From assembly GCA_008632985.1 (NCBI GenBank), contig QPGO01000020.1, positions 620,001-684,000 on the forward strand: a DNA stretch of 64,000 bases, in the 5' to 3' direction. This document shows, one piece after another, positions 9,330 through 60,100 of this stretch (the stretch's first letter is position 1; each line of letters begins with the position of its first letter). This stretch comes from Psammoneis japonica. Taxonomy: Eukaryota. Below the pieces are notes generated by a model. That model saw only the letters and a list, made by a program, of their open reading frames with translations, did not search any database and had not been told where the DNA came from. A program made the translations under genes and the position numbers.

Positions 9330-9440
9330 GGTGTGATACTGTCGTAAAGCGTGGCTTTCAACACACACTTAAACACCTGTTGTTTCACACAAGTATCACG
9401 TAAAGTCAAATACCGACTATCAGCCAGTCACGTGCGTCCC

Positions 9441-17000: not shown

Positions 17001-17714
17001 CTTGCATTCTTCAACAAATTGAGGCAAGAGAAACATGCGCACATCATCTCCCATTGTGTGGCAAACATGTCCCACACAATGCCAACTCTTCAAGCTGTTC
17101 TTCCTCAAGAGCTCTGTTGAGCTTCCTGGCATTCCTCAAAACAAAGCCCATTGTTGCCTGTTTGACCATCATGCTCCAAGATTCTTCCCATCCTTTTTGT
17201 GCTTTTTGGAAAATCATGGCAGCTCTTACATTCCTCAAGCCATTGAACAAGGAGTTGGTGATGAATCATTTCCCACTCAGAGCCAAAATGACAAACACAC
17301 CCAAAGCTGTTGTTCTTTGATTCATGACATTGCTGCTCTTCATTTCAAGTGGTGTTGAATCTGGGAGCTTGGATGACTCAAGCACCTGGGAAGGGGGTTC
17401 TGTCTCTTGCAAAGGTCTTTCAAAACTGGCACTCTTGCCAGTCACAAACAAGGCATCCTTGTGCAACTTGGGGCCAATTTGACCATTGCATCAAAGGTTC
17501 ACCATGCAAGAGAATCATGGCCACCCTCATCATCTTGCATGCACACCCAAGATGATGTTTGCTGCTGGGAGCCTTCCAGCCAATGCACCCAATCATTTGG
17601 CTTGCATCAGTGGCAGAACTTTGAACAGGATCTGCCATTGCTCCAATCTCTGCTGTGCCATGTTCACACTGGTTGCCAAAACTCTGCAGCTCTGGCATCA
17701 ACAAATTTGCTTGC

Positions 17715-25301: not shown

Positions 25302-25351
25302 GCTCAGCGACCACACTCAGCGACCACACTCAGCGACCACGCGCTCAGCGA
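25302..25351 (+). repeat. 13-bp minisatellite (CTCAGCGACCACA) x~4
   Basis: Directly visible tandem copies. Confidence 0.8.
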
Positions 25352-25698
25352 CATGCCAGGAATTTGTGGGTGTTCCACACGAGTTCTGAACCACCACGAC
25401 TTGTTTCACGATTGTTGGGAACAGGGTTTGTGAGTGCCATGAAGGTGTTGGCTAAAAGATTTGACGGAGGATGTGTGTTGAAAACGGCATCCACGTTCAT
25501 CACACACACAGTGTGGTGCCGTCGTCAACAGCAGCGTCGAGTCGTCGTCGTCCAACAGATGATTGATGCGCTTCCGCGCGCGGTCTCGATCATCAGGTCG
25601 GATAGCGGAGGGAAGTTTCGCAAGTTGAAGTTCGCATGCATGCCGGTATCTTTGATCTTTGGCGCGTTTGGAAATACAGTACGAAATGGGTACTGTAG

Positions 25699-25748: not shown

Positions 25749-27502
25749 AGGTTCACAAAGAATAGACCACACGTCTTTACCGACCAAGTTGAAGCGCAGG
25801 TTGAAGCGCTCTACTAGCTGGAACATTCCGATCATGGATCATGGCTCACGTTTAACAGCGGTCATCCTTTGTCGAGTCAAACACCACGGAGGACCGGGGG
25901 GATGAAAGAAGAAGCGACAAACCTACCGCTACGGACGAGATTGCGTTTGTTTGGCGACTATTTTGTGCTGAAGCTGAGAGACAAACGCCGGAAACTCTCC
26001 TCGAGTGAATTTATTTCCCACGGTGCTGTTGGATTCTGAGCTTAAAGCCGTTTGCTTTGAATTGGGATGAAGCCTTGTTGTGTCCAGCAGTTGCGCTCAT
26101 TTGTTTTGCTTCGATCCATTCATTTAATATCCTTCAAATTTCGGACCTTTCTTTTGTATCGTATTTGATATCGCCTCCGGAGGCGGTGCTTTGGAATCGT
26201 CTCTTGTACACGCCGCAGAGTGACGATTGACAGGAATAAGACCTCTGGTCTGCCATTGCTATCAAAGAAAGACAAGATGTTTGACAAGTGTATTTGCAGG
26301 AAGCTTATCTCTTGTACTGCCGTTGACGACGCTGTTGTCGTATTGAACGAGCTTATGCAAGCGGCGGATGCGTTGATATCTGCAGCTCAAAAGACGGTTT
26401 CAACATTGTCATCCAACAACATTATGCGGTCGTCATCCAATCAACGGAAGCAAGCATAACACGATTTTTTGCTGTAATCAACTGGAAAGCTACAAGAGCC
26501 AATAGTTTTCAAAGAAAAAGAATATCAATTCAATAGTGGAGCGTTAAACTTGTGAAGTGGCTGCGTCAGAGGTTTGCGTGTAATAGTGTGTCTTGTGGAG
26601 AGCTTTCGATGCAGTTGCTGAGCTGGACTATTGGTTGGAGGTGGCGTTGCAGTAATGGAGGATATGAAGGAGAGCCCATGACTGTGTTTTGCGGTATTTT
26701 TCTGTCCCTCTCTGGTTCACGGCCTTTATTTATACTACGGGTACCTCTCCTGAGTCATAATTCACAGGGAGCTTTTGCGTGTTCCAGCTACAATCCAAGA
26801 TTGGTCTATCGTTGCTCATTAATAATTGCTTCTTCTGCTTTCCTTTTGGCTACGCGGAAAAGTGGTATTTAGAGACGGACGCCGCTTTATGGGTCGTCAA
26901 CGCAGTTTGATGCGACTCACACTTGAAAGGGTTTGGTCATGGCAGACTGGCGGTAGTCTGCCTGCACTGATTCGAGAATGCATCTATTGCCTGATCTCTG
27001 GAATCTCGTCTGCACGTAGCTAAGGATCCTTGAAGTGAGTCGCCCGAGTCTTTTGTATTTTCAGATTTGGGAAATTATGAACGTATGATGCCAGACATCA
27101 TTGTTCCAGCAGAGTGGGTTGGCCACGGCCCTTGCACCCGCCGTTGGTTGGAAGGTTCACCAGCAGCTGTGCCGCTTGACTTGCATTGCGGGAACTCCCA
27201 GCTCCAGTGTTGCTGATACCGGAAGAGGTTTTGGAAGACTTCATCTGCTCAATCTGTATGACGATTCCTGTCGATGCAGTCATCTCTCTGACAGTATCCA
27301 AGAAGTGTACGCCTTCGTACCATCATCTTATTTATTGAAGTTTTGGCTGCTCCTCAAGGTGTCTTTGAAGCGAGAGCGCTAGCCGCTGCGTCTCGAAGCA
27401 TTCGGATGTCATACTTTGTGTGAGTTGTTCATGTAATCACTATCTTCGAAAAGAACGATTTCTTCTTCTCGTCCGCTTGTCTTCTTTCTTGTGCTCGTCA
27501 CC

Positions 27503-28802
27503 ACAAGAATGGGTTGGCTTGGACGGAATTGCCTTAAGGTATCAAGTCGCTTGTGATGGACGATACTTGATGGGTTCAAACACTGCATTGTGGGTACAGT
27601 ATACCTCTACTGCATCTACAATGAAGACATCCTGGGCGCACAATAATTGTACCAATCGAATCATGCTTTCTCGAGTTGGCGGAGAGTCATCGACTAGTAG
27701 TGCACGACAATGTCATCTTCTCAACTAGCCCTACAAACCCATCGGAAATGCTTACTGCACGGTGGGAGAATTCGGCATTCATGTCATTCGACAAAAACCT
27801 GTGTCACTGGCTCATCACACTGACTCTGCCGCAAAGCGGCCACGAACACAACATTAAAGATAAGAGAACGAAGGAAAACGACTAGACGTGAAAATTTGAC
27901 GTTCTCAAAGGTACCAAATGGTCGCCTGCTTCAGTACCGATAACAGCAGATTCTCCCTTGTCCAGGTCGCTGGAGAAGAGAAAATCCCGATTATATCTAT
28001 TGTTGTTTGAGCGTATGGGTATTGTACACAGACTATCTAACCGCAAGAATTGGTTGGCTTGGACGGAATTGCCTTGGGGTATCAAGTCGCTTGTGATGGA
28101 CGATACTTTCAAACACCGTATTGTGGGTGCAGTATACCTCTACTGCATCTACAACTGCAGACAAGAATTGGTTGGCTTGGACGGAATTGCCTTGGGGTAT
28201 CAAGTCGCTTGTGATAGACGATACTTGATGGGTTCAAACACTGTATTTTGGGTACAGCATACCTCTACTGCATGTACAACTGAAGACAGTGAAGAGGACA
28301 TCCGAGTTTTCATACTGTCGAAGCGGGAATTGATGGTGCGTGCCTCTACTAGAGGTAGCACCAACAGCTCAAGATCAGTTCCTGCCTTGGAGGCATCCTG
28401 GGCGCTCAACAATTGTCGAATCATGCTTTCTCGAGTCGACGGAGAACCATCGACTAGCAGTGCACGACAATGTCATCTTCTCAACTCGCCCTACAAACCC
28501 ATCGGAAATGCTTGCTGCACAGTGGGAGAATTCGGCATTCGTGACATTCGACAAAAACCTGTGTCACTGGCTCATCACACTGACTCTGCCGCAAAGCGGC
28601 CACGAACACAACATTTAAAGACAAGAGAACAAAGGAAAGCAACTAGACGTGAATTTGACGTTCTCAAAGCTGTCAAAACGGTCGCCTGCTTCAGCACCGA
28701 TGACCGTAGATTCTCTCTTGTCCTGGTCGCTGGAGAAGAGAAAAGTCCCGATTAAATCTATTGTTGCTTGAGCGTGTGGGTATGGTACACAGACGATCTA
28801 AG
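27503..28802 (+). repeat. Tandem segmental duplication (unit starts at ~27503, ~28044 [partial] and ~28162)
   Basis: caagaat.ggttggcttggacggaattgcctt..ggtatcaagtcgcttgtgat occurs three times; the following ~400 bp are duplicated with high identity. Confidence 0.9.
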
Positions 28803-41062: not shown

Positions 41063-41603
41063 TTTGTTGACGATACCGTCTGTTTTCGAATCGGTTGAGA
41101 AACGCACGAAATTACGCAAAAGGACTTGCTCACGCGCTAGAGATCAGCCGTCGAATTTCTACTGTATCTCTTAGACAGTCTCCGTCCTATGGATGGCGTG
41201 TGTGTGATGAAAACTCCTCGGTCTCGTTGCGGCTGTGAGCTGGTGTTATGCCATCATCATTTGCAACCTGCAACGCAAGCAACAACTCGCGGACGAAACA
41301 ATAGAAGAGCAAGCAAAACTTCCCGCCACTAACGTCCGTCTTCGTACGTCGAGGCACATCGGACTGACCACACACCGCACTGAGTCACATCGTCGTCAAG
41401 CGTCAAGCCACGCCACAATCATCAGAGCCGCCGCCGCCGCTCATCTGGCCCGTGATCTGCGTGAGAATGGGTGACCCAAGTTGGAAGTGCTTTTTTGCAT
41501 GTGTGGAGAATGCTTGCGAACCCACCGTGTGTTCTTCCTGGTGATTTCTTTTGTTCTCTCTTAATGAGGACTGGCCACCTGCAAGCTGCGAGCTTGTGTT
41601 GCT

Positions 41604-41864
41604 GGCCTGTTCCAGCTCCAGGTGCTCCGCGAGGGTTCGATTCCCATCATTTGGAAATTTGTGCATTTGGCGCAATTGACTTTTTTCCAAATCCATTTTT
41701 TGCCAAATCGAAGGGTGAGTGTACACTTTACATGCATTTTCGGGTGTACGCTCACCTTTTGATTTTCGAAACGATCAAAATTGAAGGAGTCAATTGCGCC
41801 AAACTGCGCAGAAAATCGGCCTCTCACGTGATGAAAAGCAGATCACCTGGAGCTGGAACAGGCA
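41604..41864. mobile_element. MITE family A, copy 2 (261 bp; TSD TGCT)
   Basis: Same TIRs and interior as 19278-19547; TGCT at 41600-41603 and 41865-41868. Confidence 0.9.
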
Positions 41865-44800
41865 TGCTGTTGCCCTGGCTGAAAGACTGCTCTTCGCTGC
41901 TTTTTTGTCATCTTGACAAATTGTCACCTGAAGTCAGCCCGTGTCTGTTGCACATGGCATGCCAGAGCCATGGAGTCCAGATGACATCATCTGCAGCTGC
42001 CTGCTGTTGACACCTTTTTTTAAACCAAAAGCTCAAAGAGACGCAAGCATCTGAGAATGCCCCCCTGGCACCAAGCCCTCAGCCAACAGCACGACATTTT
42101 GCAAGTCATGTTGAAATCCCCTGTGCACACAGCTGTGTGGCTGCCAAGCTTGGGGAGCACAGCTGCCGACAATGTGGACAAAATGCGCACACTTCTTCAT
42201 GCTGCACCTCTCAACAGGCCTGCCCTTTTCATCCCAGCTTGTTCAGATGATGCACACTGCAATCTTTGAAACTCATCTCATCTCATGAGTGTCTGAAAAA
42301 CAGCCTTTTGTTGCTTGACTGTGCTTTTTCACTCAGCATTGTTTGCAAAAGAGTTGGGTGAATTGGGCCTGGGTGTTTTTGCCAAAACCAAGTGTTCTTG
42401 ACCAGGTGGTGGTGGTCTGCAACTTGAATCTTAGCCTCAAATTTTCATTTTGTGTTTGGGCCTTCAATGTCAGCATCCTCAAATCCACAGCTCCGTCTGT
42501 CCTTGTCAAACCTGCAGTGTTTTTTTGCTTGTGACTGCAACCCTCGCCAGCACCTGTGCACCACCCATCCTTGTCATGCTGCCAAAGGCTGCGTGGGTGG
42601 TCAAATGAAAAGAGACAGTGCAACAGGTGAGAGATGAAAAAAGCAAAATGTGTTTGCTTGCCTGTCTCAGTGAGCCCAGTCCATTTTTGCCATGAAAGAA
42701 TGTTGCCCCTGCTCCCAGCACTTGCTCAAGCACAAAATCAGATTGCACAGCAAAGTCAGAGACCCAAAAATCAATGGATTGTGACCCTGTTGTGGTGGTG
42801 CAAGACAGTGCCAGCAGCACAGGAGATTGGTGCGGAAGTGGCCAAGAGTGTGCGGCAGAGGTGAGAAAGTGGCCAGGCTGTGAGAACCATCTTCCAGAAA
42901 GCAAAGCAAGAGCTCTCAGCGGCAATGGGAGGAACAAGAGCAGAGTGCTGTGTTTGCAGATTTTCCTGTGTGGACAATGACCCAAATCTGAAAGCAATGT
43001 TTTCACACTTTTTTGACTGATGGAGGGATGGCTGGAAAGCTCTGCCATGGCACCATTGATTTGGAGAGAGCTGGTTTGGACAAGTGAAAACAAAGAGCAA
43101 AGTTTGTTCACACAAAACTCTTGGTGTGTGGCAAAACATTGGCAAACTGCACTGACCATGCTGACATTCTCCAGAACAACAAAATTTGGCAAACTGAGTG
43201 CTTCTGCCTTCCATCTTTTGCAGCACATGATTCACGCTGGCAGCTGACAGATGCCAGCAAATGCATTGTGAGTGATGCATGCATTGTGCACCCTCGTCAT
43301 TCTGGCACTTTTCTTTGGAGTTGAAAAATGTCAAAAATGCAAAGCAAAATGAAAAATCAGCAGCACAGTGTTTGTGACACCCACAGCTGGATGCAATGAA
43401 AACTGAATTTGGTGCTTTTTGTCATTGTGAGACAACTTCCTCCCCACCAGAGCAAGAGCAATTGCCACACAGCAAAAAGCTGCTCTTTCCAAACAGCAGC
43501 TTGTGGCCATGTTTTTGTGCCAGCCTGTGTGCCTCCCAAGAGTGCAAATGCTCTCAAACACTGTGGCACACAGGGAAGTGCAAGGTGGAGGCATGCAGGA
43601 GACAGCAAGAAAGAAGTCAGAGAAGGGGCTTGCAAGTGCAAAATCATCCTGATGCCAGACAACCTGCTTTGGAGGAGAGGGGTCAAAAGCTGCACACTTG
43701 CAAAAATGGTGGACTTAGAAATGGGTCAGATCATTTGGGGAAAGAAGGAGTTGTCTTGCAGGAAGGATTTGACAAAGCACTTGTGAAAAGATTGCTTGAG
43801 GAAACTCAAAGAGAGAGCACAGATGATGTCAAATGTTTGGAGGGAAAAGATGCTCTTGTGTGACACGTGAGCTTTGATTTGTTTTTCTCATGACATGTGC
43901 ATTTGAGCTCCTGGCCCCAAGTCTTGCTTGCAGTCTTGCAAACACACCACAGCCAGATTTGAAAAAGAGGAGCTTGCCAACCATGCACAACAAATGTGGG
44001 TTGTTGGGTCTGCAATGACAGCCCAAGGAAGTGCTCACTCTTTTTTAGCCAGCTGGCTGGCAGGGCTGCAAGTCACAAAGTCCAAATGTGCATGTTGCAC
44101 AAGCTGCTGTGCTGCTCAGCTTGCTGGGACAAGCCTGCATTGCAAGAAGGATTGTGCACTTTGCTGGCTGTTAAAGTCACAGCACCAAGTGAACAAAGAC
44201 CAAGCCCTGCAGGAGGACAAACTTGGAGTGAAGTCAGTGGCTTGTGGACAAAGCAGGCAGCTCACTTGCACACATGCATGAAGCAAGTGTGCAAAAACAC
44301 CAGCCCATGAGACCCAGCACACTCTGCAGCAGAGCAAGCAAGCTCAGAAACAGCCTTGCAGCTGCTTGTTGTTGGCAGCAACCCTCTCTTTGTAGCTGCC
44401 TTTGTGCTGCTTCTGTCGCACCACCTGGCACACAAGGCACAGAGCACAAAGCACAGCCACACTCTGATGCTTTTTGAGCAAGTCTGGCACAGAAGTTGGT
44501 GCTCAGTTGGTGTGTTGCCTGCTGTGCCAAGTGGAAATGTGCCCTGGACAGAAAACAGATGAAGTGTGTTTAACTGGACAACACACAAAAGAGCTCCAAG
44601 CAAAAAGAGCACCAACAAGCCACAGTGCATTTGGCCCTCATTGAAGAGGAGGAGCAAAAGAAATCAAACATGGGGGCCAGTGTGATGCAGATCCTGCAAG
44701 AGTGGTGGTCTGTGAAATTGGTGGTGGTGGCACATTGCATGAGCCAAAGATGGTGCTCTGATGGACATGCACAGCATGTGGCAGATCACGCCATCAGTGG

Positions 44801-45625
44801 TGAAATGACATCTTCCCTTTTTGTTGGGGAGTGCCCAGCACATGAAGTGTCGACACAACTGGCAGATGCCAGCCAGCAGCAGCAAATGTCCTGCAGCTGT
44901 GGTGCAGGCCTTGTGAAAGAGTGAAGGTGTGCACCATGGCACAAATTTGCTGCATGAGCCCAGCCCACACAGCTGCTCACAACTCTTGCACAGAGAAGCT
45001 CAAGCACACACTCATGCAACCAAGAATCATTTCACAGCAGAAAAGCACCCTGGCTGCCTTCTTCCTTTGCTGGGTGGAAACTTGTGGTGCTGGGTTGTGA
45101 CAGAGTTTGTTCTTTGTCACATGCTGCACAAAAGACACACCCATTTCTGCATGACACTGGATTTGGTTTGCACTGAAAAAGTTTTGGGTCATGAAAACTT
45201 TTGACATTTTTTGCATTTTTGAGTGTCTGTGCTGGAATGATGCAACCTCGTCCATTTCCAAAATTTCAAGTGGCAAGAAGAGGCACAACGGTGCTGCAAA
45301 AAGGCGGTTGCTTCTTTTTTACATTGAGGGCAAATGTGCACTGCCCAATGATTTTGCTGCAAAGCCCGCCACACACACAGAATTCTGTGGGCCCAATGTC
45401 GCAGGGCACCCCAGCCACATTTTGCTGAAATGCATGTTGGCAGCAGGCAGAGGTGTGTGCCAACTTAGAAGCAGCTTTGCAGCTGTTGTCAACCTGCTTT
45501 TGTTCATCTCCAACAAACTTGGCACATGAAGCATGATCCTTTGTCACAGAGGTTGAGAGCTCGGTGCCTGCGCCAGAAGCAGCACACAAAAACAACTCTC
45601 TTGCAGACAAAGAGGCAGCAGAGAG

Positions 45626-45629
<4 letters not shown>

Positions 45630-45666
<37 letters not shown>

Positions 45667-45672
45667 AGAGAG
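45630..45672 (+). repeat. (GA)n microsatellite
   Basis: Directly visible. Confidence 0.95.
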
Positions 45673-46376
45673 CTCTTGCTGTGCTGCCAATGGCAGGGGA
45701 GGAGGGAGACCATGGCAAAAACTGTTGGCTCTTTCCTTGTGTGTCAAGGCCAGGGCAGCTGCTGGGCACAAAAGAAAGCTGCTGGCAACTGAAGCTAACA
45801 CAAAAATGCCAGCAGCTCACTGGCTGCAACTCCATGAACTCAACTTCAAAAAAATGCACACTGAACATTGCATTGCCCGCCCTGTGTGCGTGGTGGTTTA
45901 GTCCATGTTGTTTGAGAGAGTCGTCCGTCGTCACACATCTCCACACCTCTTGCTCTGTGCGGGCGGCCGGAGGTGTTGCACAGAAAATGCTCCAGCATAT
46001 ATGAAATTTAAATTTTAATGAAAGTATTAAAGCTTGAATATCGTCAATATTTTGATATCAAATATCTCGTGTTCATGAATTTAAAGTTAACATTAATTTT
46101 TGGAATGATGGATCCGCATCGTCCATCGTTGTGGCGTTTGTCACAAAGACAGAAAATATACCGGTACACTATGTATAGTAAGCTTGCTCATGCTGATGCC
46201 GCCCGTGAAAGAGTGAATATACTGCGGCTTTGTTTTCCTTTTACCGGTACACCTTCTTGGCATTTTCTCCTCATCATTATCTAGAACCCAACGCCACACC
46301 GAATCATCACACCGGTGCAAGCATGTCAGAGTTTCATCATAGATGGTATTTATGTTCTAGAGTATAATCATTCAAA

Positions 46377-48781: not shown

Positions 48782-49453
48782 GGTGGTAAGGATATGGTGT
48801 GCAGATGGTGTGTTGAAGGCATGCGTCAGTGTGTGTTGCGGCAACCGCCTTGTGTATCTCGCAGCGTCAGTTCTGCGGTATCCTGTTGTCCATCATCAAG
48901 AGGCGTTTCATTGCAGGGCTGTGGGTAATCGACGCTACGAATAAGCCAGAGAACAACCGTGTCAACATCACCGTTGTATGTCCATTGTCCATAAAGTGCG
49001 AAAAAATGCTCAAGCACTTTTCTTTGCCGTTTTCGCTTTTGCCTGTCGTGTGCACATGGCTGGATGGACGTACAGTAGAGTGTTCTTACCGACCCGTAGG
49101 GGACCCTTTTTTCCGGGTCTCTTTTTGTATGACGTCATCGTGCGAATATAATAGCGCCACCTGACGTCACCGCACCTGTAAGTCGCCATGAGAACCCGTA
49201 GAAAACGCCATGTCTTACAGCTACAGGGGGGAAACATAACCTGCTGTATCTGTAAGCGGAATGATTTCCGCTCGTACAAATTCTACGTGATTTCCCCGTG
49301 CACCGTCGCTTGCGGGTCGAATCAGAACTCCGAAGAAATGATGTGTGAGAAGCAAATCCCGTGACACCTCTCTCGCGACAAAAAACACACATCAACGCAT
49401 TCTCACGATGCTCTAGTCATAACAAGTCATAGCATCCATGCAACACATCTGTC

Positions 49454-50512
49454 ATGCCTGGTGGACAGCCACAGAGTCACAAGTTGTCATGGGCATTGAA
49501 AGAGTTGAAAAAGAAGGAGAGATCTGGTGGCTCCGGTGGCGCTGACGGGGAAAAAAATGCGAGCGGTGCTGGTGGCATTTCTGCGCTCGATGTTGACAGG
49601 CCAGCCCCGCATTTGACCATGGATGGAAAAGAATCAACTCTTGTGGAAATGACAAATCTCCCAATCGATCTTACGGAGGATGAAAAAGTTGACATCATCA
49701 ACAAGGAGAAGGGAGTCACGAAAAAGCCGAAGCTTCCAAACTTGCTGGCTCCTGAGAACGAGGCCTTGTTGCGTGATCTGCTGCAAATCACACAAGCAGC
49801 AAAGGCAAATTGGCATGTCAAGCACATGTCCAAAAATGCAACCACATCTTCAATCTGGCAGCCAATCATGGACGAGTTCTGTGACCCACCTGACGGCCCT
49901 GCACGTGGCTGCGCCAAGCCAGATGGTGAGCATGCGGCGCGCACCTTCAAAGAAAAGTGCTGGAGTGTCATGAAATCATTGGCGAATTTTGCCAAACAGA
50001 AGAAGGAAGAGGATTGCTCCCCGTGTGAGGTGTCTGCATTGTTCATGTGGAACGAGCAGCAGGAACTGGTCAACAAAGACAAAGAGACCAAGTCGGAAGC
50101 AATGGCCTTGCAGAAGGAGAGGGCAGCTGCAAATGCTTCATGTGAAGCAAAACTAAAGCTTGAGCCCCCACCTCCATTCACAAAGAAGCGCCCAGTCCCA
50201 AGTGCAGCTGTCAATCCATCTGAGAGGCCTGATGGAAAAGTGCCGGGGGAGCCGAGGTCAAAGGACCGTGTGCTGGATTTGGAAAAAACTCAAGACAAGG
50301 CAGACGAAGTCTTGAGTGGCATTAAAGCTTTTTTGCCATCCAAGGAAGAGATTGGAGAACTCAACAAGCGCAAGAAGAGGAAGCTTCAGCTTGATGCAAT
50401 GGCGTCTGTGGCAACAATGATCACGCAGGGCAGGGATGCGGGTCTCGACGTTTCAAGGTTTGAAAAGCATTTCAAGCACCTGCAAGACGAGTTCTTCGAA
50501 GACCAAGCTTGA
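49454..50512 (+). CDS. Harbinger accessory ORF (putative Myb/SANT-like DNA-binding partner), Tyr-free, probably inactivated
   Basis: 352-aa ORF inside the TIRs, convergent with the transposase; 0 Tyr. Myb/SANT identity is inferred from position only. Confidence 0.6.
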   Translation: MPGGQPQSHKLSWALKELKKKERSGGSGGADGEKNASGAGGISALDVDRPAPHLTMDGKESTLVEMTNLPIDLTEDEKVDIINKEKGVTKKPKLPNLLAPENEALLRDLLQITQAAKANWHVKHMSKNATTSSIWQPIMDEFCDPPDGPARGCAKPDGEHAARTFKEKCWSVMKSLANFAKQKKEEDCSPCEVSALFMWNEQQELVNKDKETKSEAMALQKERAAANASCEAKLKLEPPPPFTKKRPVPSAAVNPSERPDGKVPGEPRSKDRVLDLEKTQDKADEVLSGIKAFLPSKEEIGELNKRKKRKLQLDAMASVATMITQGRDAGLDVSRFEKHFKHLQDEFFEDQA

Positions 50513-50741
50513 AAGAGATGAGGCTTTGCTTGGCACAAATTAGGACACATGTTGCATGTCGCCACAACAACTTCAGAGCCACACAGAAAAAAATCTGTGG
50601 CCTCTCACAGTGCATGCTGAGCATGACGACCCCGCAAAGTTGCGCGCCAAATTCCCAGTGCGTTAAAATGAGCTGGGCGTTGCTCCAGAAGCAATGGGAA
50701 TTTTGCAACAACAAACAGTGTCAACGTCATCTAAAGAACGA

Positions 50742-51712
50742 GAGCTTTCTAAATGGTGTCTTTTTTATTTCCATGCCCCTGTCAGATCCGAATCGGCGTC
50801 GAGATGTCCAGACGACCCCGCAGTTGCGCGCCAAAATCCTGGTGCGTTTTGCTTGAACAGGCGTTGCTTTAGAAGTGCTTAAATTGTGGGACAATCAATG
50901 GCAGCAACATTGTCACAGAGTGAGAGCTTTGTGTCTTTTTTATTTCTACACCCCCATCAGATCCGAATCGGCGTCGAGATGTCCAGACGACCCTGCAGTT
51001 TCGCGCCAAAATCCTGGCACGTTTTTTTTTTTGCTTGAACACGCATTGCTTTAAAAGCACCCAGAATTGTGGGACAATCAACGGCAGTGACATCATTTGC
51101 AGAACAAGAGCTTTCTAATGGTGTCTTTTTTATTTCCACGCCCCTGTCATATCCAAATCGGCGTTGAGATGTCCAGACAACCCCGCAGTTGCGCGCCAAA
51201 ATCCTGGTGCATTTTGCTCAAATGGGCGTGGCTTTAAAAGCACTTGGAATTGTGGGACAATCAATGGCAGCAACATTGTCTGCAGAACAAGAGCTTTCTA
51301 ATGGTGTCTTTTTTATTTCTGTGCCCCTGTCAGATCCGAATCAGCGTTGAGATGTCCAGACGACCCCGCAGTTGCGCGCCAAAATCCTGGTGCGTTTTGC
51401 TTAAACAGGCACTGCTTTAGAAGTGCTTGGAATTATGGGACAATCAATGGCAGCAACATCTTCTACAGAACGAGAGCTTTCTAATGGTGTCTTTTTTATT
51501 TCTGTGCCCCTGTCAGATCCGAATCAGCATTGAGACATCCAGACGACCCCGCAGTTGCTGCCAAAATCCTGGTGCGTTTTGCTGAAATGGGCGTAGCTTT
51601 AGAAGCACTTGGAATTGTGGGACAATCAATGGCAGTGACATTTTCTACAGAACAAGAGCTTTCTAATGGTGTCTTTTTTATTTCCACACCCCAATCAGAT
51701 CCGAATCGGCGT
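50742..51712 (+). repeat. ~183-bp tandem array, ~5.3 copies, between the two Harbinger ORFs
   Basis: gagctttctaatggtgtcttttttatttc..cagatccgaatcggcgtcgagatgtccagacgaccccgcagttgcgcgccaaaatcctgg recurs at ~50742, 50925, 51108, 51291, 51474 and 51656. Confidence 0.95.
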
Positions 51713-51806
51713 CGTTCAGGAAATAGAAGCGCTGAGAGTTTCGCAACAATGTGTGACACAAAGACAAAAGAAGCTACATTCATGCTGAGTTTGCAACAAC
51801 ACAGAT

Positions 51807-54363
51807 CTAATGTAAATTTAAGCAGTTTTGAATTGATGGTGGATCGACACCAAATGTGCCGATCGCACCAATCTGGTTGTGGTTGAAGCACGTGTAACAA
51901 TTTGTGAGCAAGAAAGACACGCGAAGCTGCTCACAAGCATGCGGTGTTTCACAGCATGGCTTGAAAGGACAAAACGTCCTGCAAATTCGAAAGACATTGG
52001 ATGCAACACCATGGCTCCACTCTACCGTGATGCGCACTGCCTTGAGCTGATAATTTTCGAGCACCTGAATGGGCGTGAGTGGAGCTAGCCCGTTGTGGCC
52101 GGGGCGATGCGCATGAATGACGCATTGTTGTTGAGCAAATCCCCGGTCCGCATGCACAGCATGCACCATGCCATTTGGAAAGCAGCCTTGCTGAATGTCC
52201 AGCAAGTGTTGGTTCACGGCTGACAAGTGCTGCAAATCGGTGTCAGCTCTGGCAAACTCGAACAACACAAAGAGCAATGAGAGTGTGATGAGCAGCCACA
52301 TTTTACAGGAAATGCAAAGCACATCGGACTTGTTCCAGACTTAGGTGGCGCGCACATGCCCCTTTTCGCAGAAAAAATAATTTTTTAAAGCTTTATTTAA
52401 CACCGTACATATTTAATAAAATTGAATATATTAATGGCTTTTAAGTAAAATAAACAGAATAAACTCGAACAAACAAACAGCCAAACCGGCCATGGCTTTC
52501 AGTGACCATGACGGCCCACTTTTTTCAGCCTTATGGAAAATTGAATGTCATGACCAGGATCTCCGTATTTGATATAGTCTGTGTCATCAACAACAATAGT
52601 GAAAATGCTTGTTGAAGGCTGCAGCGCGGCACAATAATGCTAAATCTGTCAGCAACAACAATTGAGCCTCTATTCACTCACAATTTGCCTCTAAGGACCA
52701 TTTCTTTTCTATTACCATGTATATTTCCTCAATATATTCGACTGATTCAAGTGTATCAATCGTTTATGCCTTCTAAACCGTGAAAAATGGTCCGAAGTCG
52801 ACGCCATTGCGTGGGCTGAGCTACACTTCTTCTCACGTCGTCCTAAACTTATTAATCAACGGATGCTTTATTCGATCCGTTGAATGTAACTCGTATTCGC
52901 GTATATAAACAAAATATTAATTATGCTATGTTAAAGACTTAATTTATATATATTAATAATATTTTATATGTTTCTTCTTACATTAAGGCGTATATAAATC
53001 GCTCATCGGAAAATTCGAGCTCTCAACTTACGGTACAATTTAGCGACTAATGACTGAGTCCATCAACAGTTTCGAATACATGGGTACACGCACAAGACAA
53101 TTCTGTATGTACCCATAAAAACACATTTGTAAATTGTTATGTTTTTACTCTATCGAAAATGGTGCCGCAAGTGTGGACCGCGCGTTTCATGCAAAAAGGG
53201 TCATTTTTTTGCGCGTGAGTGCACCCAAGTCTGGAACAAGTCATCGGCAATGCACAACTGTGTGCTTGCCTGCGAGCTGAAGTGGGACCCCATGTGATGC
53301 TCAAGCCGTTTGGAAAAGTTGTTGCAAGCATCTTCATGCCGTGAATGTGCTTGCACCCCGTGCACACCGATCGCTGAATGTTGTCTGCGTCAGGGCGACG
53401 CGGTGCATCTGCCCAGTCCTCAACTGGCCCTGTCCCTGGAGCATTTGTTTCAAACATTGAACAATCCACAAAGCCAAAAATGTTGAATTCCCCTGGTGGA
53501 CAAACAAGACCGGGGACGTTGTGCACTTGAGCAGTGTCCGGGTCAGTCCAAGTAGCCCGTTGCTTCAGTTTTCGCTCCATTGCTCTTGCAAACAAGGGAA
53601 AGTCATCAATCCACCTTTCAAGACCTTGTTGCCCAAGTGTGGGAGCACATCTGTCATCAAGATGCATCAAAAACCACCGGCATCCATGCGACCACCGAGT
53701 CAAATCCCTGCCTCCAAAGCACTCATCCACCAACACGGCATTGTCGAGTCCAAGTGCCACCTTGGTCAAGGAAAACAAAAACAATTCCTCACCGGTGAAT
53801 TGGCAATGATGCCCATGAGCACATGGCACAAGAACCAAATCGGGCAGGTCAAACAAAACACACAATTGTCGCAACTGATCCACATTGAATCGTGTCATCC
53901 GCTCGGCGCAGTTGTCAGAGCATTCATCAATTCGTCGGTTATGAGGCAAGACAAAATCAGCAGCACGATGCTCTTCCTCGCATGTCATGTCGCCAATTGC
54001 TGCGTTGCAATCTGCCCAAATGTGAGCCACATGATGACATGCAAAAATGCCACCCAATGTGTGCGCAAGAGCAACGCCAAACGGATCGTCCACATTGCCA
54101 ACTTGTTCTGGATCCAACAAATGACCATTGTCCTGGTTGAAAACATCAATTCTGGACACAATTGAAAGCAGAGTGAGAGTTGCAGACCATTGAATAAGTG
54201 ATTGAACAGAACGCGTCCAGAACACCTCTGTTCTCCTTGGCGCTGACACTCCTCGAGCGTTGAGAGACCTGTCCCTCATGTTTCTGTTGGTGAGCCGCCG
54301 TGGCAATTTGCGGCGGTGTCCATGGTGAAACAGACGTGGTTGTCTTGGCATGATGTGCATCAA
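51807..54363 (-). pseudogene. Harbinger DDE transposase (DDE_Tnp_4-like); exons 54363-53270 and 52248-51807
   Basis: IFGFVDCS, QRSVCTGCKHIHGMK, FPNG, GPTSARR|AD, HADRGF, ENYQLKAVRITVEWSHG, LLTNCYTC. The exons join in frame; the donor reads GCAAGC. Confidence 0.9.
52327..53242. mobile_element. MITE family B (916 bp; TIR GACTTGTTCCAGACTT[A/G]GGTG; TSD ATCG), inserted in the transposase intron
   Basis: 21-bp TIRs with one mismatch; ATCG at 52323-52326 and 53243-53246; AT-rich interior. Confidence 0.9.
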
Positions 54364-54915
54364 GAGTGCAACAACAATGCGACTGCAAAAGTGTTTCTTT
54401 ACCTTGGTGGATGAGAACCCGCAACCCCATCGTCAAAGCATCAAAGCCGCACCCGCACAGGTTGAGCTGATCGGCTGCAGCACCGGGCAGGCGAATTGTG
54501 ATTGAGTCGAGTGGTGAAACACGAATGGATCAGAACCCGAGACCCATGACCCATGCGGGTCGGTAAGAACACTCTAGCACCGGGCGGGTGGTGCGGACGA
54601 AAATGAGGTTCGTCCATCTGTCCATTGAAGCTTGAAGATGTTCGAGCAATCGGTCATCGCGGTCGGTGCCTGGTGCTCGCGGTGCTTCAGTGCTCGGTGC
54701 GGTGCGGCATCATTGGACGCAGTGACGATGGTGCCCACGACTTGCAAAAGCAATGCTGATCCGAGACATTGCATGATTTTTTCTTGTGGATCTTGACCAA
54801 AATGTTGCAATGGCCATGGTTGTTGCACCCCAAAAGAAGCGTTTGGTGAGGCCTCAAAAAGACGCTTCATGCACGAACAGGTGACAGGTGGCTCTCCATT
54901 TTTTTAGCTCTCGGC

Positions 54916-56030
54916 ATGGCAAGTTGCGTTCTGCTGCATTTGTTGGTTCTCGGAGGATCTGTTTTTCTTTTTCGCAATGTCCTTTGGGATCATGAAAGCC
55001 TTCGTGGTGCCTTCAGACATCGCAAACACCACATCTCATGCCCCTGCGTTCAGCGTCACTTGGTGGAAATTTCCAGCTCCACCCATCTCGATTGGAAAAG
55101 CATCTCCACCATGTCAAGAATGAAAGCAAAGATGACGTGATTTTGAGTGAGAATCTGTTGCAAGTCAAAATGCCCTGTTTAGATCATGCCCGGCGCTTTC
55201 TCTTTTTTCGGATGCCTTGGATGCGCTCAAGCTGCAGCGAGGAAAGGATTTGTGTTTGCACACGCGCCAAATGTGGGTTTGCCGCTCAGCATCATGATTG
55301 GTGCCCGGGGCACATCAAAAGGCTGGCATTGTCAACAAGAACATGGATGCCAGAGATGACTTTGTCCATCCCATGTTGAAACAACATTTGGAGGAGGAAG
55401 ATGTCAATTCATCCAGAGCGTGCAAGAAACAACAGACAGCACAATGGCGGTGCATTGCACGGCATGTGTCAATCGATCTGGGCTCATGGGGTGGTGCAAT
55501 GTGTGATTCATGAAGAACAAGTTGTCTTGAGAAAATCCATCTGTTGTCAACAGTGCTGAGGAAATGTGATTTTGAGATCAAACCACAACTTTCAGTGGCA
55601 GCTGGCAGCACTGGCGGGCACGACATGAAGGGTTGCTCGGGCCAGCTCCAGGAGAGCTGCAGTGCATTGCAACAGAGCCACTGAAAAGCCATTCTTCCAA
55701 TGGGCAAAAAGAGACACATGTGGTGGATGCCCCCCTGTTTGCAGTTGCACAGAGTGTTGCACCCGTGTCGTCTGCAGCCTCTTGGCAGCCAAGGCTTCAA
55801 GTGCTGCTCCCATGTGGATTCGTCCACCAGGTCTGAGGTGCAAGTTGTTGCGGCACTGCCAATTGCTTTGGGATTTTCAACTCTGTGTTTCAAAGCCGTG
55901 TCATGTCAAATTGATGAATGATCATGGGTTTTTCTTCATTTGGGTTTTCCTGTCCAAAGCTCTGCCTCCTGCTGCAATCATCCACCTGAAGCTGCAGGAC
56001 CGTGCGTCAGCAATGAGAGACTGAGCCAGG
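54916..56030 (+). pseudogene. Hypermutated remnant of a probable host type II membrane gene (possibly sulfotransferase-like)
   Basis: MASCVLLHLLVLGGSVFLFRNVLW N-terminal TM-like segment and ICVCTRAKCG (resembles a PSB-type KCG motif); lies outside any TIR pair; no TA seen. Confidence 0.3.
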
Positions 56031-56380
56031 GCATTTGAAAGCGACATCAGTTGCATCAGAAACTCGCTTTGCCGAGGAACATTCTGTGTGAGGCAAAAGA
56101 GGGTGCGAGACATTGAGCAACATGCATGCATGTTCTTCTGGAGCAGCACTCGAGCTTCAGGTTTGGGCGGGGGCAGTGAATTGGAACTGCCACGACAAAA
56201 AGGTGTCTGGTTGTGGGGTGCATGATCTTTTTTCTGCTCGTGAGTCATTCAGAAATGCTTGAGGTTGCTCGCATCCCACATCAGGATGAGGACACTCTGG
56301 AGAGGAAAAGTGTTTGCAACGAGTGTGGTGTCTTTGTGAATGCTTTCAGATGCTTGCACTGGGGCCGGAGTCTCTTCTTG

Positions 56381-56935
56381 GACGTGTTCCAGCCGCACGT
56401 GAACCAAATCGTGCACAAAAACGACATTTGCGCGATTTTTGCGCGGTCCCTAACTTACGATCGAACTTTCACCACCAAAAGTATAGATTTATACAAATAT
56501 AAATGTTTTGCAACACTAACAAGACTCGTGTGAGTGTTGCAATATCATTGTTATTGTGCTATCTATGTTTTTCATTGCGTTAAAAGATTCGTAACACAAC
56601 GGATGATTTTCGGCGAAAATATTGCCGTTATTTGGCTGTTACCTAAATATATCTTTCTACGATGCTACTTGGTAGGTTTTCTACCTACAAAAAAATCTCA
56701 GTATAAATCTACTGACGTACAATCAGTATTGAGTCTACTGAGGAAGTTTATGATACATATCCCATGAGGATTTGAATACCCCTCAAAAAACTATTTAAAT
56801 GTTCATACTCTAGAAGCCTATAACAGTCAATCCGTCTAAGTATTTTTATTAAAATGCTATATACACTAAAATATACATAAATTATATTCAAAATCCGATT
56901 GTCGTTTTGTGCGTCACCTGGGACTGGAACACGTC
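56381..56935. mobile_element. MITE family C (555 bp; TIR GACGTGTTCCAG....A[C/G]GTGA; TSD CTTG)
   Basis: Inverted ends; CTTG at 56377-56380 and 56936-56939; AT-rich interior. Confidence 0.85.
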
Positions 56936-57190
56936 CTTGTTGGAATGGCATGGGGCGGGCAGGAAGAGCCCTTGTTTCTTCAGGGCCACACACTGATCTC
57001 CTTGATGATCTAGATTCTTCCAAGGCTGAGGCATCAGATCCACTCGTGATGAGCGGAGAATCCAGAACTCGATCGCCGAGTGCGATGAAACAGATGGCCC
57101 AGATCTTGTCGTTCAAACAGAGTCTGTCGTTAACGGTCGAGCGCATGCTGAGACAAATCATGGTCTGTGCAATGACGGCAACCTGTTCTT

Positions 57191-60100
57191 GTTCAGTCTT
57201 GGCACCAGAACCCCGGGACTGAATCCCTGGTTTTTGAAAATGTGGGTTTGAACCCCAAAATGAAAACATGGGATTGAAACCCGGGTTTTTGTTCACGCAG
57301 CTCGCAGCACTTTTTCTGCGTAATTTTGCCATTTCTTAGAACCCGATGTGACTTTGCTTCCCAGTTCTTGCAGAAAACAGATCACTTGATCCACTGCATG
57401 GCCACTGCTGCTTGCAATGTTGAACAAAGAATTTGACATTTTATGTGGCATTGCTGTCCTGCTGTTCAATGAGACTTTTGATGTGATTTGCATTCTGTCT
57501 CTTCACCGCAATTGATGGTGGTGTCCAGTCAGTCTTGCATTTGTTTGAAAACAGCTGAGTGTCTTCCCTGCCAAGCCCATGCAACAGTGCATCATGACAG
57601 TCAAGGAAACAGGTCTTCTTGCCGCTTGTGCCTCGGTTGGTGGGGAAGTGCAATGGTTTCCCACACAGGTTGCAACTCGAGTGCGAGTCTGCCCTGCACC
57701 AAACACAGACCCTTGGATGCTTGTGGCTGGCAGACACTGCATCGAACTGACAATGTAAGTGCGGCAAACCATGACATGGACAAGATTCATTTCCACCCTG
57801 CTGAGCGTGTTGGCATTGTTCCAATGTCACAAAATTGTGAGTCGTCGTCATTTGTTCCGAAGCCGCTCTTCGATGATGGTTTTGTTGCATTGCAACCCGC
57901 ATTGCGGAGTCACCATGGTGTAAACATGCTTCAGGGTGACACTGCAGCATCTGTCTTGAGAGTTGTTCTCAGAACTCCCAGCAACCCATTGGACTGTTGT
58001 CTTTCCAAGACAAGTCTGACCCACCCTCCGCCACTTCCAAATGCATGTCATGCGCAATGATGATGGCCATGGCCTTGCCATGGTTCATGGCAGAATGCCA
58101 ATGCTTCCAAGAGCAACAGAACATCTTTGCATTTTTGATGCAATGATCCATTGAATCAATTCGTGAGTGAGTTGAAAGATGCAGATCACGGGCTTCATTC
58201 ATCTTGATTGCCCAGTGTTGCTTGCTCTCGTTTCCACCTCTTTCCCGATGCTTCACATGTTTGTTGCACTGGTTGAGGGCATTCACAGCAGCAATGTTGC
58301 ACAACGAGGTTGATTGAAATGAGCAAAGCACATGTTGGTGTCCCTCAGTGCTGCGTGTGGGCACCACAGTCTTGACAGCAACAATCGGATGACCAAATCT
58401 TGCTGCTTTTGATCTTGCATCGGATGGTGTTTGTTTTTTCTGAAAGCACTTCCCTGGCACTCCCGAAGGCAGCCGATCCCTTTGACGTGTGAATGCAGCC
58501 GAATGGCCATTTTCTCCAATCCAGTCTGAGCTGTGGTCAGCATCAAAGCAGTTGTCACATGTTGTGTGTGGCTTTCCTTGGAACATCTTCTTGGGTCCGG
58601 CGTTGTCACCCATTCTGCCAAAATCCACCATTTCGCCTGCTTGTTCCAAGATCACACGGATTTCTGTCAGGCCCATGGCACCCCCCATCCATCTGTCCTT
58701 GGGTGCAATTTGTGTCGGTGAACACAAACCCAAGGTCAGATCCAGTGTGCATCCAACATGATCACTGTCTGACCACCCTTGGCAATGCCGGGCTTTCCAA
58801 CTGTGCGACCGGCAATCCCGCCACCAGCGTCACCACAACCCGCATGGCCCCAGGTGGTTTCGTCACCACATTGATCCAATTCTGCATGGTGTGTCATCGC
58901 GTTGACATTGTGAGCTGTTGTCGTGCATGTCATGTCATGCTTGTGGGCCGGGTTGCACCCAGCTTCTCCTCTTCTGGGGGATGTCATGTTGTTGCATGGC
59001 TTCAGCACTCGCTTCATTTGAAGCCAATGTGAATGATCAATTGACGAGGACATGTCTGAGTCGCAGTCGGATCCATCAGCCATCCACCTGCGGTGAATGG
59101 CTCCGTCACTGCCACCCTTGACACCGTCTCGGACAAATCTCTGTCAAATCTGACAAGCTCCTGGATGCTCACAAGTTTGAGCTGGTGTCCATGCGAAGAG
59201 CACAGCTTCAACTCTCCCGCGGTGCACAAGTTTGAACATGTTTCTGCTTCGCTGCAGAACGACTTTCTGGGGTCTGAGTTGACACCCGACCGTGTGGTGT
59301 CACACATTGGCAGAATCAATTGATGGAAAACAAAGCATCCCAATTTTTCATCTGCTCAGCTTTCATTCCCAATGATCGCAACACATCTGTGTCCAATGAT
59401 CCTTTCCCAATGCCTGGAAACAGGTTGTCTTTTGATGCACCCGATCCATTCGGCAGCGACAACATCTCAGATCTTTGTCATCATCAGCAACATCATCGTT
59501 GGACATGGACCGATCCCACCCCTGATGAAAGAACCACCATCCATGGGAAATTTGTTTCCCTTCCAAATTCTCAGGTGCCGGTGCGGCACCAGTTGGCAAG
59601 CTGTGATGAATGTGCTCCTTCTCCCCTCTTGCCTCAAACTCAGGGCGGAGCGCATGTGTCTGCTCCACCCTCCGGGATTGTCCACATCAGCAAATGGTGG
59701 CTCTCCCTTGTCTGCTTTTATTTCAGGCAGCTGCCACCCTTCAGGAGCACCTGGAACATTCAACTGCACCGACGGGTCATGCTCACCATGGTGCAGCAGC
59801 AAGGCAGCATGGTCATTGTCAGCCACAGTCTGTCCGTCACTGTCTTGGTCCACAACACGTGATCTCAACCGTTCCAAATGGGCTTCAGCACAAGCTCCAT
59901 CAATGTCATTGACATTCTCATGCTCTTCGTCGCTGTCACCACCATCTCCCGTCTCTGTCTCATCCTCAAGGACGTGCTCGGGGTTCACCAGTTGGTCCTC
60001 CACGGTTGCGGGACCAAAGTCTGTGGCCGTCATGCACAGTGGCAGCCCTGGTTGTTGTGCTGCCATTCCACCAAACGCTTCATTGGTGCTTTCAGAGGCG

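Follow-up and report, generated by a model that had tools for sequence, protein, structure and literature searches.

Flank-dependent loss of TpA steps in degenerate DNA tracts of Psammoneis japonica

The DNA considered here is a window of 64,000 nucleotides from Psammoneis japonica (Eukaryota; assembly GCA_008632985.1, contig QPGO01000020.1, positions 620,001 to 684,000 of the forward strand), and all coordinates below refer to positions within this window. In three regions of it, the dinucleotide step TpA has been almost completely erased, and CpG to a lesser extent, by transition into TpG and CpA. The background of the window carries 9–48 TA and 13–44 CG per 500 bp, whereas the three regions have 0–3 TA per 500 bp, with TG+CA at 1.6–2.1 times expectation. 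Tract 1 (15070–25450 overall) is interrupted at 19278–19547 by a miniature inverted-repeat transposable element (MITE) of 270 bp, to the left of which lies tract 1a (15070–19272; TA and CG erased, 4 TA in 4203 bp) and past which lies tract 1b (19551–25450; 6 TA in 5900 bp). Tract 2 (41868–45990) measures 4.1 kb and holds 11 TA and about 31 CG, with TG/CA at about twice expectation. Tract 3 is a composite, the pieces of which are separated by two TA-rich nested elements: tract 3a (49440–50500, plus strand; TA erased, CG partly retained), a partly affected region that contains a 183-bp array (50501–52326), tract 3b (53260–56375; TA erased to 8 sites, CG loss mainly at WCG) and tract 3c (56940–60090; TA erased to 8 sites, CG partly retained).

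The probable explanation is a confined transition process that acts on both strands at TpA, and more slowly at CpG, that is graded by the flanking bases and that would start with an enzyme modifying a base of the TpA step. Such a local process would have run to near saturation on degenerate mobile-element DNA, turning TpA, and more slowly CpG, into TpG/CpA on both strands. Loss of TA would be fastest in RTAY, intermediate in YTAY and RTAR and slowest in YTAR, with further protection by a purine at position +2, and loss graded in this manner would leave about 2 TAs per kb, enriched in YTAR and with none in RTAY. This explanation and the rivals discussed below overlap.

Spectrum of change and flanks of the remaining TA steps

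Outside DNA has 44.2 TA, 54.6 CG and, per strand, 72.3 CA per kb; the corresponding values for tracts 1 and 2 are 1.5, 9.0 and 113.8. The losses of 42.7 TA and 45.6 CG (88 per kb in all) are approximately matched by a gain of 83 TG+CA per kb, so nearly all loss must have occurred by transition into TG/CA. With 1.5 TA against 228 TG+CA steps per kb, the rate from TA to TG/CA exceeds the reverse rate more than 100-fold. Rho is 0.02 for TA and 0.15 for CG in tracts 1 and 2, as compared to 0.04 and 0.59 in tract 3 and to 0.98 for CG outside. Since TA is erased in tract 3 and CG is partly kept there, TA loss is faster than, and separable from, CG loss. Tract 3 looks younger than tracts 1 and 2. At tract edges (25000–25600, 41400–41600 and 45900–45990) TA is gone and CG is normal or high, as illustrated by 25500–25599 with 0 TA and 14 CG; TA erasure thus extends beyond, or precedes, the loss of CG.

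CG loss has flank requirements of its own. In tracts 1 and 2, survival is 45% for GCGC, 32% for CCGC/GCGG and 7–10% for CCGG, CCGA and TCGA, only a 5' G being protective. In tract 3, 39–60% of the A/T-CG sites (TCGA 41%, ACGT 39%) and 75–119% of the C/G-CG sites (CCGG 119%, GCGC 101%) survive. The CG preference is for a 5' W or H, not strictly for T, and differs from the flank rule at TA.

The products TG and CA are finely interleaved. The fraction of TG/CA steps with the same type as neighbour is 0.496 in the tracts versus 0.513 outside, giving no strand patches, and the dispersion index of TG versus CA is 0.86 versus 1.45 outside, without over-dispersion. This interleaving speaks against one-strand processes such as edited retro-copies. 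There is no erosion of AA/TT steps, of which tracts 1 and 2 have 83.9 and tract 3 has 74.0 per kb, as compared to 78.0 outside; this agrees with the initial annotation, which had distinguished the pattern from the WA signature of polymerase eta on this ground.

The changes are sharply confined. The right border of tract 2, where 1 TA per 100 bp gives way to 12 per 100 bp, is sharp to about 10 bp, and host genes a few hundred bases away from the tracts, as well as the younger nested elements, are unaffected. The assembly was checked with Logan k-mer contigs of run X1, which were independently assembled from the same sample and are hence biologically not independent. One contig of 3570 nt covers tract 2, with a word depth of 68 as compared to 58–61 in the flanks; such independent contigs at single-copy depth indicate that tract 2 is real and is single-copy today. 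In tract 2, the window and the run contigs differ by one substitution (G>A) and two 1-nt insertions of A in homopolymers, at 42021, 42187 and 42973. The homopolymer differences suggest that the window assembly was derived from long reads and has kept small residual errors.

For tract 2, the initial annotation had listed the surviving TAs and described them as almost all YTAR. The list is exact: nine of the 11 sites are YTAR (42021, 42432, 43716, 44046, 44172, 44571, 45466, 45796 and 45899), the other two being GTAG at 44393 and TTAC at 45320, as compared to 287 of 1665 TAs (17%) outside (Fisher p=6e-6). The statement that tracts 1 and 3 agree was too generous, since YTAR is enriched there but accounts for only 5 of 10 sites in tract 1, where GTAG, two TTAC, TTAT and ATAA had been missed, and for 8 of 19 in tracts 3a–c. 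When the six saturated tracts (1a, 1b, 2, 3a, 3b and 3c) are pooled, the 40 residual TAs, all from this one window of one genome, comprise 22 YTAR, 18 mixed (YTAY or RTAR) and 0 RTAY sites, against 287, 832 and 546 outside (n=1665; chi-square p=8e-11). The count of NTAN tetramers that had been proposed as a check thus gives survival that is not proportional to background. The same holds if the TAs of three young nested elements and two MITE copies are used for comparison (28/63/50, n=141; p=3.5e-5 for YTAR and 4e-7 for RTAY), if tract 2 is left out (13/29 YTAR, p=5e-4; 0/29 RTAY, p=1e-5), and for tract 3 alone (YTAR p=0.0097, RTAY p=5e-4) or tract 1 alone (p=0.018 and 0.019).

"Almost all YTAR" also overstates the pooled result (22/40), and YTAR sites are themselves mostly lost. 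Only 22 of about 166 expected remain, which corresponds to a loss of 87% for YTAR, 96% for mixed sites and 100% for RTAY; with 87% of the YTAR sites gone, the flanks express a graded preference and not a motif. Survival by tetramer, obtained by scaling tract counts to outside counts, is 18% for CTAA/TTAG, 13% for TTAA, 8% for GTAA/TTAC, 6% for CTAG, 5% for ATAA/TTAT, 2% for CTAC/GTAG, and 0% for ATAC/GTAT, ATAG/CTAT, ATAT and GTAC. A Poisson model with two half-sites, and one factor per half-site, puts half-site survival at 0.49 with a 3' A, 0.27 with G, 0.10 with C and 0.053 with T. The division into R and Y half-sites is strongly supported (likelihood ratio 42.4, p=7.6e-11) and a four-level model is marginally better (p=0.027); the implied rates by 3' neighbour are 2.94 for T, 2.26 for C, 1.30 for G and 0.72 for A, an approximately fourfold range. 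Position +2 is biased as well (A 0.49 versus 0.27, T 0.09 versus 0.27; p=2.4e-5), a purine being protective, and the best-protected context is a TA between a pyrimidine run and a purine run. Of the 5'-TAY-3' target that the initial annotation had proposed, the direction of the flank effect therefore stands, in these data and in the array described below. The flanks modulate TA loss as a graded preference, and there is no strict TAY motif.

Conversion in place in the array and the transposase gene

The 183-bp tandem array (50722–51712, plus strand; 5.4 copies, partly mutated) allows a comparison among related copies. Most differences between them are of the type CG/TA versus TG/CA. The alignment of five copies has 174 ungapped columns, 47 of them variable, and the variation consists of a transition in a YR step in 34 columns, of another transition in 6 and of a transversion or a multi-state pattern in 7. 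At several sites, TG in one copy corresponds to CA in another, which implies conversion in place after the array was formed. Classified by their own flanks, the converted copy-sites, which belong to copies of shared ancestry and are not independent events, amount to 16 of 16 for RTAY, 29 of 39 for mixed contexts and 4 of 16 for YTAR (chi-square p=1.5e-5). Sites with only TG or CA were assigned to an ancestral TA because the CG sites of the array are mostly retained. Three TA sites (CTAA, TTAT in a T run, and TTAG/TTAA) are common to 5–6 copies and retained in all 16 copy-sites; being shared to this extent, they must predate the copy-specific conversions and are thus ancestral. The array shows flank-dependent loss directly, not gain.

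This bears on the alternative that all ancestral TAs were erased and that the residual ones are new, produced later by C>T at T-C-A or C-C-A (G>A at TGA or TGG on the other strand). The responsible activity could be the 5'-pyrimidine-preferring C>T change that removes CG, or run-extending misalignment at T/A runs. We consider such an origin unlikely, even though a model of C>T at YCA fits the contexts with a negative log-likelihood of -14.98, against -11.98 for survival (four parameters each), with per-site probabilities of 3.1% for TCA, 0.9% for CCA and about zero for ACA/GCA. It would explain that 24 of the 40 residual TAs are TTAN and that they are located at junctions of T runs and A runs, and CG loss likewise disfavours a 5' G. 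By our estimate, background mutation at the level recorded in the array, where 13 of 47 variable columns are not YR-step transitions, could also yield some 1–2 TA per kb from a pool of 206–228 TG/CA steps per kb. However, the array records differential loss, with the shared TAs always kept and RTAY always converted, and context-free newcomers would be 25% RTAY, of which there are none. Back-mutation of TG/CA within the tracts, irrespective of context, is rejected as the source of the residual TAs (p=6e-7), and from the absence of RTAY we calculate that context-neutral newcomers make up at most some 30% of them.

Evidence that the loss is mutational comes from the coding capacity of tract 3. 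Among 118 open reading frames (ORFs) of at least 90 codons inside the tracts, the sole Pfam match above the cut-off is DDE_Tnp_4 at 51810–52340 (E=4e-7). A 431-codon open frame at 53140–54432 on the minus strand, corresponding to the N-terminal and core parts of a transposase, shares 41% identity with protein P0004, which carries PF13359, and the last third of P0004 (residues 284–432) matches 52250–51813 on the same strand by tblastn (feature 51813..52250, the C-terminal part). On the basis of these matches, the frames are recognised as one Harbinger/PIF-type (DDE_Tnp_4) transposase gene that is split by a nested element, termed B (52327–53242), the insertion point lying between the P0004-matching residues 284 and 285.

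The 431-codon frame has no Tyr, 22 Cys and 23 His, as compared to 28, 7 and 16 in P0004. A single transition turns a Tyr codon (TAY) into one for Cys (TGY) or one for His (CAY). In the 21 columns where at least two of four homologues have Tyr, the window gene has Cys in 7, His in 5, Tyr in 1 and another residue in 8. The replacement of conserved Tyr and the split by insertion mean that the gene is dead. Relatives were sought in metagenome contigs, where 221 stretches matched the pattern and three were confirmed; these three have an ordinary TA content (rho 0.63–0.65) and 18–26 Tyr. The TA-free state is therefore mutational ruin and not a family trait, and the loss of TA is mutational, not selective, in origin.

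The base attacked and comparison with known mutators

At TpA, either the adenine would be deaminated, in the context 5'-TA(Y), or the thymine of the opposite strand modified, in the context 5'-(R)TA, alternatives between which the sequence does not discriminate. The initial annotation had pointed to the former in noting a likeness to TadA-family deaminases. Taken to its full extent, this reading has a TadA/ADAT-like adenine deaminase that would hit A in single-stranded 5'-T-A-Y-3' of either strand and spare only YTAR. Loss of CG would be accounted for as well, given that ADAT2/3 of Trypanosoma is also able to deaminate cytosine in DNA. The tracts resemble the action of TadA, ADAT2-3 and TadA-derived base editors in that A-to-I change is read as G and a 5' U/T is obligatory: TA is lost and AA is kept, a result that can also be read as T>C at TA. 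Half-sites with a 3' Y survive 3–9 times less often than those with a 3' R. Wild-type TadA depends on UACG, and TadA-8e prefers UA without a clear downstream preference (PMC12296453). The natural enzymes, however, act on RNA loops and not on chromosomal duplex DNA. The +1 preference observed here is T>C>G>A, so T is favoured no less than C, and since about 87% of YTAR is lost, TAR is also a substrate. The G at +2 of UACG is masked in these tracts, because CG itself is removed.

A strand-specific TAY preference predicts that YTAY becomes YTGY and RTAR becomes RCAR (class A products), as opposed to YCAY and RTGR (class B). The share of class A is 0.548 (±0.009) outside and is raised to 0.667 in tract 1a, 0.615 in tract 1b, 0.667 in tract 2 and 0.648 in the array region. 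The prediction fails in tracts 3a–c (0.552, 0.552 and 0.515), and where it is borne out, in tracts 1 and 2, it is confounded with the direction of CG loss. Fits to the tetramer gains in tracts 1 and 2 give chi-square values of 97.3 without direction, 67.4 with a TA direction only and 69.5 with a CG direction only, so that the excess of class A is explained equally well by directional CG-to-TG change with a preferred 5' pyrimidine. All these fits are poor (chi-square 63–97, 16 cells), which means that outside composition is only a rough baseline. In tract 3, where little CG was lost, the model without direction fits (chi-square 16.3, 16 cells). Mixed contexts in the array give a direction of 19:10 (one-sided p=0.07). 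The conserved Tyr codons of the transposase, with 7 Cys to 5 His, reveal no strand direction, and the Y|TAY codons are split 1:1, with only two informative cases and thus no power. Finally, 0 of 40 RTAY is more extreme than the approximately 5 that by our calculation are expected from additive half-site rates, which points to recognition of a whole duplex site. RTAY would then be read as a small palindrome, and its complete absence slightly favours such recognition over a strand-specific TAY half-site. A TadA/ADAT-like activity on single strands is thus doubtful, and the link to TadA would be one of resemblance only.

Alternatively, the thymine may be attacked, by oxidation of the TET/JBP type directed at 5-methylpyrimidines in YR steps (T in TpA, 5-methylcytosine in CpG) with the flank rule 5'-R-T-A. 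Base J and 5-hydroxymethyluracil occur at T followed by A in the telomere repeats of kinetoplastids, and 5-formyluracil mispairs with G. A single activity of this kind would account for the loss of both self-complementary YR steps, with TG/CA as the sink, for the even effect on both strands at fine scale and for the behaviour of TA sites as duplex palindromes, RTAY being the most sensitive with none of the 40 left. Yet TA and CG loss are separable, as seen from rho in tract 3 (0.04 versus 0.59), and their flank rules differ, CG surviving best as GCGC (45%) and worst in CCGG, CCGA and TCGA (7–10%). We therefore regard a common thymine- and methylcytosine-directed oxidation as quite unlikely.

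Several points weigh against the two-strand, flank-graded process that we prefer. It is based on 40 residual TAs in a single window of one genome, and the tracts are assumed to have started from the composition of outside DNA. No enzyme, DNA modification or repeat dependence was seen. Dependence on repeats is not suggested by tract 2, which is now single-copy by depth, nor by the tracts as a whole, since tracts 1, 2 and 3 lack mutual homology even in a purine/pyrimidine-coded self-comparison. The array counts come from copies of common descent, and the assignment of its TG/CA-only sites to ancestral TA is based on argument. New TAs do occur, two having arisen by transversion in the array, with one ATAT, and the likelihoods given above slightly favour the new-TA model. 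The absence of strand direction in tracts 3a–c and among the Tyr codons, and the alternative explanation of the class A excess in tracts 1 and 2 by CG-to-TG change, count here as well.

That there was no special mutator, the tracts reflecting adaptive TA/CG avoidance (TA-free DNA would be immune to transposons that target TA or TTA) or a sequencing or assembly artefact (the assembly does differ from the run contigs at homopolymers), is very improbable and was rejected, because the transposase is dead, its conserved Tyr codons turned into Cys or His and its gene split by insertion, family relatives have normal TA contents, one and the same site has become TG in some array copies and, independently, CA in others, and the k-mer contigs of run X1, albeit from the same sample, reproduce tract 2.

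Among known systems, repeat-induced point mutation (RIP) of fungi (Neurospora type, CpA to TpA) has in common with the tracts a saturated transition hypermutation of mobile or repeated DNA, with sharp borders and on both strands, as well as the escape of short elements and the destruction of element genes. RIP, however, makes TpA and uses up CpA/TpG, whereas here TpA is the step that disappears (44.2 to 1.5 per kb) and CpA accumulates (72.3 to 113.8 per kb); furthermore, the net change includes A:T to G:C and leaves no strand patches. Canonical RIP is rejected in view of this opposite sign at TA. As to a confinement to duplicated DNA above a length threshold, borders are sharp, tract 3 is a Harbinger-type element and nested elements of 270–925 bp are unaffected, yet tract 2 is single-copy by depth and the tracts lack mutual homology.

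Horns et al. are said to have reported, in 2012, a RIP-like hypermutation of transposons at CpG/TCG. Decay of this type, in basidiomycetes and rusts, resembles what is found here in that CG is changed to TG/CA in transposon DNA (CG rho 0.15 and 0.59 versus 0.98) and that A/T-CG sites are lost first, as in tract 3. The CG half of the present pattern thus resembles the TCG/CpG decay of methylated transposons that is discussed in PMC8063080. The passages considered describe no TA component, whereas in the present tracts TA is removed faster than CG, and more completely.

Three further candidates can be set aside. WA-motif mutagenesis by polymerase eta (the second phase of somatic hypermutation) changes A to G at an A that is preceded by T. 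It is rejected because AA is kept, and strand bias is lacking too. ADAR hyper-editing in retro-copies gives clustered A-to-G changes with a 5' U preference via an RNA intermediate, in one-strand clusters. It was rejected since the element is a DDE DNA transposon and since TG and CA are interleaved without runs. Vsr repair of enterobacteria, a prokaryotic system, depletes CTAG and turns TA into CA/TG through a T:G-directed bias; in the tracts CTAG is one of the contexts that survive better (6.2% versus 0% for ATAT, GTAC and ATAC/GTAT), and this mechanism is rejected.

We tentatively propose, at rather less than even confidence, that a dedicated genome-defence activity rewrites TpA of duplex transposon DNA, by conversion of A to I or of T to a derivative that pairs with G, with palindrome recognition (RTAY most, YTAR least sensitive), and that it works beside a CpG-directed C-to-T activity. 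To our knowledge, all described hypermutation directed at repeats or transposons (RIP, RIP-like CpG decay, APOBEC editing) deaminates cytosine. A search of the literature at the level of abstracts, in which subscription journals were thinly covered, found no TpA-erasing or A:T-to-G:C DNA hypermutation of transposons, and a TA-erasing mutation process is apparently undescribed. If the proposal is correct, this would be the first natural, targeted A:T-to-G:C hypermutator of DNA, leaving TG/CA as the only pyrimidine-purine step. A natural mutator of this kind would bring a new chemistry to genome defence and would be an obvious place to look for base-editing enzymes. The flank hierarchy (RTAY > mixed > YTAR; 3' T>C>G>A; protective purine at +2) can serve as a fingerprint for a candidate enzyme and for genome-wide scans.

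Mobile elements and host surroundings

The tracts are degenerate mobile-element DNA in the case of tract 3, and probably so in the case of tracts 1 and 2. Tract 2 has no recognisable gene or repeat, and its ORFs match no Pfam family; by analogy with tracts 1 and 3, it is presumed to be transposon-derived. Below the Pfam cut-off, the 118 tract ORFs gave only ZGRF1-like_N, SOCS_box and Zn_ribbon_Nudix, and no deaminase family was matched by these ORFs or by the 61 ORFs outside the tracts, all from this window. A 359-codon open frame at 49433–50509 (plus strand; P0003), upstream of the array and opposite in orientation to the transposase, is free of Tyr, rich in Lys and Glu and without a Pfam match; it is a candidate for the second, DNA-binding gene of the Harbinger-type element.

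The MITE in tract 1 (19278–19547, plus strand) has 18-nt terminal inverted repeats (TIRs) and has kept its TA (6 sites) and CG intact. A second copy is located at the left edge of tract 2 (41604–41863, plus strand), and the first is 88% identical to 41599–41867. Its word depth of about 25,000, as compared to about 60 in the flanks, corresponds to roughly 400 genomic copies. Close to one of its ends, the approximately 270-bp element has a GGTTCGATTCC motif that resembles a T-arm, and ARAGORN calls no tRNA in it; its flanks suggest target duplications of 4 bp (TGCC, TGCT), and a metagenome scan with its end gave 0 matches. Elements B and C (the latter at 56381–56935) are TA-rich and unmutated, with TIRs of the same TGTTCCAG type. 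Both are non-autonomous, the related inverted repeats reading G-A-C-K-TGTTCCAG. The MITE and elements B and C, all of which retain TA and CG, are either later arrivals or too short to be targeted.

About 1.7 kb of tract 1 (18370–20130) consists of tandem units of 20, 40 or 60 nt with a core that resembles a decayed palindrome AGAAYRTTCT; in these units CG has been replaced by TG or CA, differently in different units. The approximately 20-nt unit that forms arrays in tract 1a (18370–19270) is similar to the TIR motif found in the nested elements; as subterminal repeats, such units may have served for transposase binding in a large autonomous element. The segment 20559–20669 of tract 1b is homologous to the interior of element C and is mutated. 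As a derivative/ancestor pair, 20559–20669 and 56504–56611 were rejected, since with 77% identity they are too diverged and TA is aligned to TT/AA.

The tracts are embedded in eukaryotic nuclear DNA with host genes split into several exons, such as a CCT/TCP-1 chaperonin gene in at least five pieces (7323–9357) and fragments of adaptin, DENN and ankyrin genes. In the purine/pyrimidine-coded self-comparison, the only matches were the arrays, the MITE and one repeat outside the tracts, and terminal inverted repeats sought at the tract ends scored no better than shuffles. The window gave 0 matches in Rfam and 0 tRNA genes with ARAGORN, and a homologue search with an E3-binding ORF gave 1 weak match among 8000 scored candidates. 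Outside the tracts, at 27500–28800, there are ordinary local duplications of 120–420 bp with 88–93% identity that are unmutated, which shows that repeats of such size and similarity are not erased. Tract 2 further contains an (AG)22 microsatellite at 45630–45672.

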